Origin: a virus
IMG/VR virus record: IMGVR_UViG_3300011390_000031
Location: 834-64,833 of that record
DNA length: 64,000 nucleotides
Direction: 5' to 3' (one strand)
Below the pieces are notes generated by a model. That model did no database searches. It was not told where the DNA came from and saw only the letters and a program-made list of their open reading frames with translations. Positions 29,753 through 29,987 of the stretch are shown piece by piece. A program made the position numbers and the translations under genes. Positions within the stretch are counted from its first letter, which is position 1. Each line of letters begins with the position of its first letter.

Positions 29753-29987
29753 GGTGAGTGAAGTTGCCTCACCTGCACATTCTTGTGGTCAATCACTGCG
29801 CACACATCTGCATCTTCGGCGCTCCGTGAACTGACCACAATCCCCGAAGTGTTGTCGCTCAGCCAGCGCCGCTTCGGAATGCCGCAGGCGGGGAGATAGG
29901 AGTCGCTTCGTAGCGGCAAACTCATCTCCGCCTGCGGCCCTTAACGTCCCAGCAGTCTCGGGTCGCCGGCCCCCTATCTCCGGGCTG
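29753..29987 (+). ncRNA. Candidate structured RNA (five consecutive hairpins) upstream of tRNA-fMet
   Basis: Stems 29753-73, 29783-840, 29844-77, 29881-938, 29952-87; no plausible ORF. Confidence 0.5.

Follow-up and report, generated by a model that had tools for sequence, protein, structure and literature searches.

Conserved hairpin modules, candidate non-coding RNAs, beside tRNA genes in Rhodococcus prophages

A run of five hairpins lies between a 63-aa gene and an initiator tRNA gene in the 64,000-nt stretch of prophage DNA analysed here (hereafter the window), and its distribution among relatives indicates that it consists of three separately inherited RNA modules (M1, hairpins 1-3; M2, hairpin 4; M3, hairpin 5) and not of one RNA. 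The explanation that we favour, to which we give about an even chance, is that the stretch would be transcribed as a modular RNA whose hairpins mark or protect transcript ends and which carries two sequence-specific recognition sites. Two of its motifs, M1 and the apical motif of hairpin 4, are new as motifs, belong to no Rfam family and come from actinobacterial (Rhodococcus) prophages.

Genomic setting

The window was taken from a 68.8-kb IMG/VR provirus record with a GC content of ~60%, and the protein homologues of the 63-aa gene upstream of the hairpins bear the names Rhodococcus erythropolis and R. qingshengii. Genes read rightward from about 3 kb to 64 kb of the window, and the hairpin stretch is situated late within the early region. 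To its left lie genes for RlaP (24480-25343), RtcB (25368-26555) and a DUF6221 protein, to its right a cREC (cREC_REC) gene (32471-32866), an HNH gene and a portal gene, and a DUF3307 gene (31402-31794) belongs to the surroundings of the tRNA region. The local order is the 63-aa gene, the hairpins, tRNA-Met (CAU), a 102-aa gene (30091-30399), a tRNA-like gene and further non-coding sequence. The 63-aa gene (29547-29738, plus strand), which matches no Pfam family, is an open reading frame with a ribosome-binding site, with a stop codon placed 12 nt ahead of hairpin 1. In the R. qingshengii-type contigs L046-L050 this stop is lost (TGA to CGA; the gene lies at 2501-2788 of L046), and the stop-less frame extends 32 codons into hairpins 1-2.

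The stretch folds into local hairpins and encodes no conserved protein

Folding of positions 29739-29995 produced five local hairpins with stems seen in both the MFE and the centroid folds, which bears out a first-pass annotation that had described five hairpins at 29753-29987 from the letters alone, all the stems it named being present where it had placed them. On the plus strand the 258 nt reach -111.1 kcal/mol compared with -91.2 +/- 4.7 kcal/mol in 200 dinucleotide shuffles (z -4.27), none of the 200 shuffles being as good, and the minus strand gives z -2.2. No long-range pairing was predicted across the ~250-nt stretch.

The annotation had also judged that no credible open reading frame was present, and we agree. 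The stretch is far more structured than its shuffles, and a conserved reading frame was rejected because a 1-nt insertion in L019 and a 1-nt deletion in L051, both within the stretch, break every frame. Two minus-strand frames of 71 and 80 aa were likewise discarded because their starts fall in segments missing from relatives. That the hairpins represent a small protein gene or decayed tRNA genes is therefore scarcely credible and already largely refuted: the 71-aa frame had been placed here by gene callers in Logan contigs, and tRNA arrays and tRNA-like elements occupy this locus in relatives, but the frames are disrupted as described, and neither ARAGORN nor the tRNA model RF00005, even at E up to 10, finds a tRNA signal within 29739-29995, so we do not regard the stretch as a tRNA remnant.

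The annotation recognised no RNA family, an impression that a search of Rfam 15 sustained. At gathering scores the window contains two tRNAs only, with no family for the hairpins; at E up to 10, positions 29500-30700 yield the tRNA and noise-level miRNA matches only, and ten related loci, searched at both settings, return just tRNAs and noise. No copy of the stretch was found in the INPHARED phages or the PLSDB plasmids, and scans of viral and genome collections with 17-mers and 19-mers gave mostly chance matches. A target-site duplication was considered on account of a flanking 9-nt repeat, GCTGTAGCG, and rejected, the repeat being within chance expectation and not kept in L045.

M1 is a covarying unit with variable flanks

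M1 comprises hairpin 1 (29750-29776), hairpin 2 (29783-29840) and hairpin 3 (29844-29877), all on the plus strand. We gathered relatives via flanking proteins, exact-word scans and exact-protein look-ups, and a covariance model built from the three hairpins (R1) detected one copy of M1 per record, at 119-183 bits, in the window and eight sequence-distinct homologues (L045, L054, L019, which is the same contig as L035, L046, L070, L051, L037 and L068); applied to ~40 further loci, R1 found no diverged copy. Across these sequences 97.7% of the pair cells hold standard pairs. Changes on both sides of a pair were seen at eight pairs, compared with 1.8 +/- 1.0 in 500 shuffles, of which none reaches eight, a count that comes from a sample of nine sequences in an alignment (A3) fitted to the model and with most double changes contributed by L051, L037 and L068. 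Controls in which the partner was slid by 1-3 columns gave 0-1 both-side changes and 30-50% pairing. Covariation in homologues, which the first-pass annotation had named among the tests of its structures, was thus found, hairpins 1-4 all being kept with compensatory or wobble changes. On the aligned sequences M1 (~130 nt) qualifies as a conserved structured RNA in the generic sense, its pairs being kept through compensatory changes.

The changes are spread over all three hairpins. The stem of hairpin 1 (core GGTGAG/CTCACC) forms a perfect inverted repeat of 6 bp around a 9-bp spacer; a U-A pair of this hairpin is replaced by U-G in L051 and by C-G in L068. Hairpin 2 is built from a 9-bp base, inner TCAC/GTGA and GCGC/GCGC pairings and a 17-nt apical loop, and two pairs of its base are changed on both sides in L051 (U-A to C-G and A-U to G-C). 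In hairpin 3, both-side changes affect five of the eight outer pairs among homologues, L046 and L070 showing wobble intermediates. Nearly invariant among the M1 copies are the apical loop of hairpin 2 (17 nt) and the linker at 29774-29782; this may partly reflect the low divergence of the set (84-98% identity), the window and L051 being 84% identical over the element and 81% over gene plus element. A switch between the loop of hairpin 2 and an arm of hairpin 3 was rejected because the CUUCGG/CCGAAG complementarity that it would use is lost in L019.

G-U cells outnumber C-A cells in M1 by 15 to 4, which fits a plus-strand RNA. The strand question bears on whether the stretch acts as DNA, as an array of palindromes bound by protein, as a site of recombination or as a signal for single-strand initiation with DNA hairpins. 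Such a role would suit the perfect inverted repeat of hairpin 1, an extra tandem copy of which is present in L037, L068 and L070, and the minus-strand folds of M1, which are about as stable as those of the plus strand, so that fold energy does not separate the strands. We nevertheless regard it as very unlikely given the excess of G-U over C-A cells, the basal stem of hairpin 4 in L020 and L076, whose good pairing is confined to the plus strand (a gain of 11-12 kcal/mol over the minus strand), and the single occurrence of the hairpin 1 palindrome in 64 kb, on which ground a repeated operator was rejected. In L068 the duplication takes its own form: the minus strand, from 1078 to 940, has an additional hairpin 1 in truncated form; a U-rich tract and ~110 nt of inserted sequence separate it from a variant hairpin 1, which the remainder of M1 follows.

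The surroundings of M1 differ from copy to copy. It follows the 63-aa gene in the window, L045, L054, L019, L046 and L051; in L037, L070 and L068 the preceding gene is another one and additional hairpins are present. On the other side, hairpin 4-long, hairpin 5 and tRNA-fMet follow in the window and L045, hairpin 4-long and hairpin 5 with no tRNA in L054, and hairpin 4-long and then a tRNA-like gene in L068. In five further homologues an unrelated 9-bp GC hairpin takes the place of hairpin 4-long after hairpin 3, and this short hairpin is followed by a tRNA-like element and a secreted cutinase-like gene in L019, L046 and L070, by a cutinase-like gene in L037 and by a homologue of gene 30091-30399 in L051. 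Since both flanks vary, M1 is an autonomous unit.

Hairpin 4 carries an invariant motif that accompanies tRNA genes

Hairpin 4 (29881-29938, plus strand), which reaches -40.9 kcal/mol alone, consists of a 14-bp GC-rich base and a capped apical hairpin. Five sequence contexts were compared (window/L054, L068, L020/L055, L076 and L077). In the apical motif, at 29897-29923, 23 positions are identical across all five, the sole variation in the inner stem being U-G versus C-G. The basal stems vary in both sequence and length and pair in every context, with three wobble pairs in L020. The motif occurs without hairpins 1-3 in L020, which shares other genes with the window and lacks M1, and in L076 and L077, which have nothing else in common with the window. 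In each of the five it shares the orientation of a tRNA or tRNA-like gene, which follows at a distance of 1-100 nt and is tRNA-fMet in the window, the tRNA-like gene in L068, tRNA-Leu in L020 and L076, and tRNA-Tyr in L077.

A model of a modular transcript and its main rival

The explanation that we favour would assign these parts as follows. The stretch would make up the left-hand part, about one half, of a composite locus for non-coding RNA in the Rhodococcus prophage, read rightward like the neighbouring genes, with hairpin modules that fold independently and M1 as a self-contained structured RNA. The strong GC hairpin after M1, whether hairpin 4 or the unrelated short one, would close the unit as a transcript-end or processing hairpin; it would mark the 3' end of the upstream message, block exonucleases and separate that message from the tRNA or tRNA-like precursors downstream. 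A putative factor would recognise two sites, the 17-nt loop in hairpin 2 and the invariant motif at the apex of hairpin 4, and hairpin 5 would be merely the leader of an inserted tRNA-fMet cassette. Judged from the relatives, a strong hairpin at the operon end appears to be the common feature of the position after hairpin 3 or the 63-aa gene.

The main rival, which we consider rather unlikely, takes the hairpins as generic end-of-operon structures at a mosaic joint, which would give the early message a more stable 3' end or act as weak terminators and would persist through the recombination that short conserved junctions promote among these phages, with no sequence-specific RNA function. The strong hairpin after hairpin 3 is indeed interchangeable, and where the 63-aa gene is more distantly related, the hairpin position is taken by canonical U-tailed terminators (L056, L028, L024 and L074) or, in others, by very long inverted repeats or long hairpins. 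A mosaic joint would also be in keeping with the 98% identity of M1 in L037 despite its different flanks and with junction segments of 27-97 nt that are 92-100% identical between the window and L034, L035 and L037 and lie between otherwise diverged genes. These boundary segments were seen in window 19932-24371 and 33367-34330 against the same three contigs, and most fall exactly on stop/start gene junctions. Several features speak against generic hairpins: hairpin 2, with its 17-nt loop, internal loops and A/U-containing stem, is unlike a terminator or stabiliser; the motif of hairpin 4 is invariant at 23 positions in contigs otherwise unrelated to the window; and a scan of 28500-31500 returned no terminator-like site, with no U-tract after any of the five hairpins, which leaves termination in the strict sense unsupported and tells equally against a terminator role in the favoured explanation. 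The frame that in L046 runs on from the 63-aa gene into hairpins 1-2 also counts against that explanation.

Comparison with known RNAs

The absence of U-tracts separates the stretch from intrinsic terminators, although it shares with them a strong GC-rich hairpin directly behind an operon's last gene. By analogy, the closest counterparts of the modular RNA that we propose are the stable RNAs encoded among the phage T4 tRNA genes and processing hairpins of the kind that RNase III cleaves in phage T7 early RNA. The tRNA region of T4 yields small, structured, stable RNAs (species 1 and 2, RNAC/RNAD) of unknown function. These, like the present stretch, are small structured non-coding RNAs among phage tRNA genes, presumably from the same precursor; T4 is a virulent coliphage whereas the present phage is a temperate Rhodococcus prophage, and the likeness is one of description and not of sequence. 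In the early transcripts of T7, intergenic RNase III hairpins with internal loops mark cleavage, and the 3' hairpins that are left protect the upstream RNA, and 3'-UTR-derived sRNAs share the end hairpin of their mRNA. The layout of a structured 3' UTR with a closing hairpin would match that of M1 and hairpin 4, although an invariant apical motif such as that of hairpin 4 is not needed by RNase III.

The first-pass annotation had pointed to large structured RNAs of the GOLLD and ROOL kind. Many members of GOLLD exceed 800 nt, one of them lying downstream of Met-tRNA, and ROOL contains multiple pseudoknots (10.1101/2024.12.08.627333, a cryo-EM preprint). Both are, like the present stretch, phage or prophage non-coding RNAs often found near tRNA islands. 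The comparison does not extend to the structure: the stretch matches no Rfam model, is too small, at ~250 nt of separate local hairpins with no long-range pairing, and its modules are inherited independently and found separately in relatives.

The base of hairpin 2, UGGUC/GACCA, resembles what we take to be the core of the Ro-binding helix; the U-A pair of this core becomes C-G in L051. Bacterial Y RNA and YrlA are non-coding RNAs with tRNA-like parts and are linked to RtcB operons (PMC4201824). We rejected an assignment to this family, as there is no Rfam match, no TROVE/Ro gene in the whole 68.8-kb record and no tRNA-like domain inside the stretch.

Phage tRNA regions repeatedly hold structured RNAs of unknown function (T4 RNAC/RNAD, GOLLD and ROOL), to which two small conserved actinobacterial motifs are added here, and a run of adjacent hairpins need not be one large RNA. 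Such spacer RNAs may bear on the expression of phage tRNAs or on the evasion of defence. M1 and the motif of hairpin 4 are short and easily deleted or probed, and Rhodococcus lysogens are tractable.

Hairpin 5, tRNA-fMet and a proposed composite locus

Hairpin 5 (29959-29994, plus strand), which constitutes M3, is weak (-18 kcal/mol in the window) and is the sole hairpin whose fold is not kept in relatives, being lost or changed in L045 and L054 through 3-6 uncompensated differences. The annotation had put the end of this stem 8 nt before the tRNA; in the MFE fold it lies only 1-2 nt before it. We read hairpin 5 as a probable leader of tRNA-fMet and not as conserved structure.

The tRNA-Met (CAU) itself (29996-30069, plus strand; called by ARAGORN and, with 59 bits, by Rfam) is of the initiator type, with a 1:72 mismatch, a GGG/CCC anticodon stem and A11:U24 in its sequence. 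It follows the hairpins only in the window and L045 and is absent in L054, L068, L019, L046, L051 and L037. The position immediately 5' of tRNA-fMet, by which the annotation had defined the element, accordingly describes the window and L045 correctly and fails as a property of the element, M1 being found elsewhere with no tRNA-fMet (L019, L046, L070, L051 and L037); because tRNA-fMet follows in the window and L045 only, the adjacency is an accident of this genome.

Further right, a conserved leader, CAACTGAATAG (CTGAATAG; CAAYTGAATAG), and a tRNA-like gene together occupy 30467-30557 on the plus strand, the gene itself lying at 30482-30557. The gene has an 8-nt anticodon loop, to which ARAGORN gives an odd four-base anticodon. 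Leader and gene were aligned with L068, L003 and L076. In L068, hairpin 4 is directly followed by the leader CTGAATAG, the tRNA-like gene and a conserved 3' segment that together correspond to window 30467-30770, so that hairpins 1-4, the tRNA-like unit and the conserved 3' element run together over ~680 nt of non-coding sequence in which no open reading frame is conserved. From this contiguity, the arrangement in the window looks like a composite non-coding locus interrupted by an insertion that comprises hairpin 5, tRNA-fMet and gene 30091-30399, and the L068 alignment likewise places the conserved segment to the right of the tRNA-like gene in what would be the same composite locus as the hairpins.

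A more far-reaching proposal, which we consider improbable, builds on this arrangement. It would unite hairpins 1-4 with the CTGAATAG-led tRNA-like RNA and with the conserved RNA at 30560-30776 in one composite phage non-coding RNA system of ~650 nt, contiguous in L068 and split in the window by the tRNA-fMet cassette; the loop of hairpin 2 and the motif of hairpin 4 would bind a host or phage factor, and the system would protect, process or replace tRNAs against tRNA-targeting defences. Equally doubtful is a related alternative to the modular transcript, in which a trans-acting stable RNA or decoy would be cut from the tRNA-region transcript and act in concert with the tRNA-like RNA and the conserved 30560-30776 RNA in a tRNA-centred conflict, for instance as a nuclease sponge or as a guide for a repair enzyme. 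The neighbourhood (RlaP, RtcB, cREC, tRNA-fMet and the tRNA-like gene), the ~680-nt stretch of L068 and the conserved loop sequences are consistent with such an RNA. Against it, no site complementary to the loop of hairpin 2 was found in the window beyond chance, and RtcB is absent from the two other viral (prophage) records that carry M1, G001 and G002, which CheckV rates as 84% and 70% complete. An obligatory link to RtcB was rejected on this ground, and its absence from these records means that M1 is not tied to the repair genes.

The relatives of the tRNA-like gene (about 2833-2922 in L003, and on the minus strand about 740-650 in L068 and about 7400-7365 in L076) have the leader, acceptor stem and T arm in common and differ in the middle part: L003 has a different odd loop, the D arm is replaced in L068, and L076 shows a mini-helix before a normal tRNA-Leu. 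Further tRNA-like elements, on which ARAGORN and Rfam make no call, occur at 3376-3464 of L019 (the same in L046 and L070) and at 3205-3318 of L020 (identical to L055), with a good T arm and a 7-bp acceptor stem, and in L019 with an encoded CCA end. The T arm of tRNA-fMet (30036-30056) contains an A-C mismatch in the window (GCAGG/CCCGC) and is matched in L045 (GCGGG/CCCGC), both keeping the 1:72 mismatch. Six independent assemblies among the Logan contigs (L038 and L040-L044) break at the base matching window position 29989, just 5' of the tRNA, and this common break points to a tRNA sequence that occurs more than once in those samples, perhaps because the host has a nearly identical tRNA-fMet.
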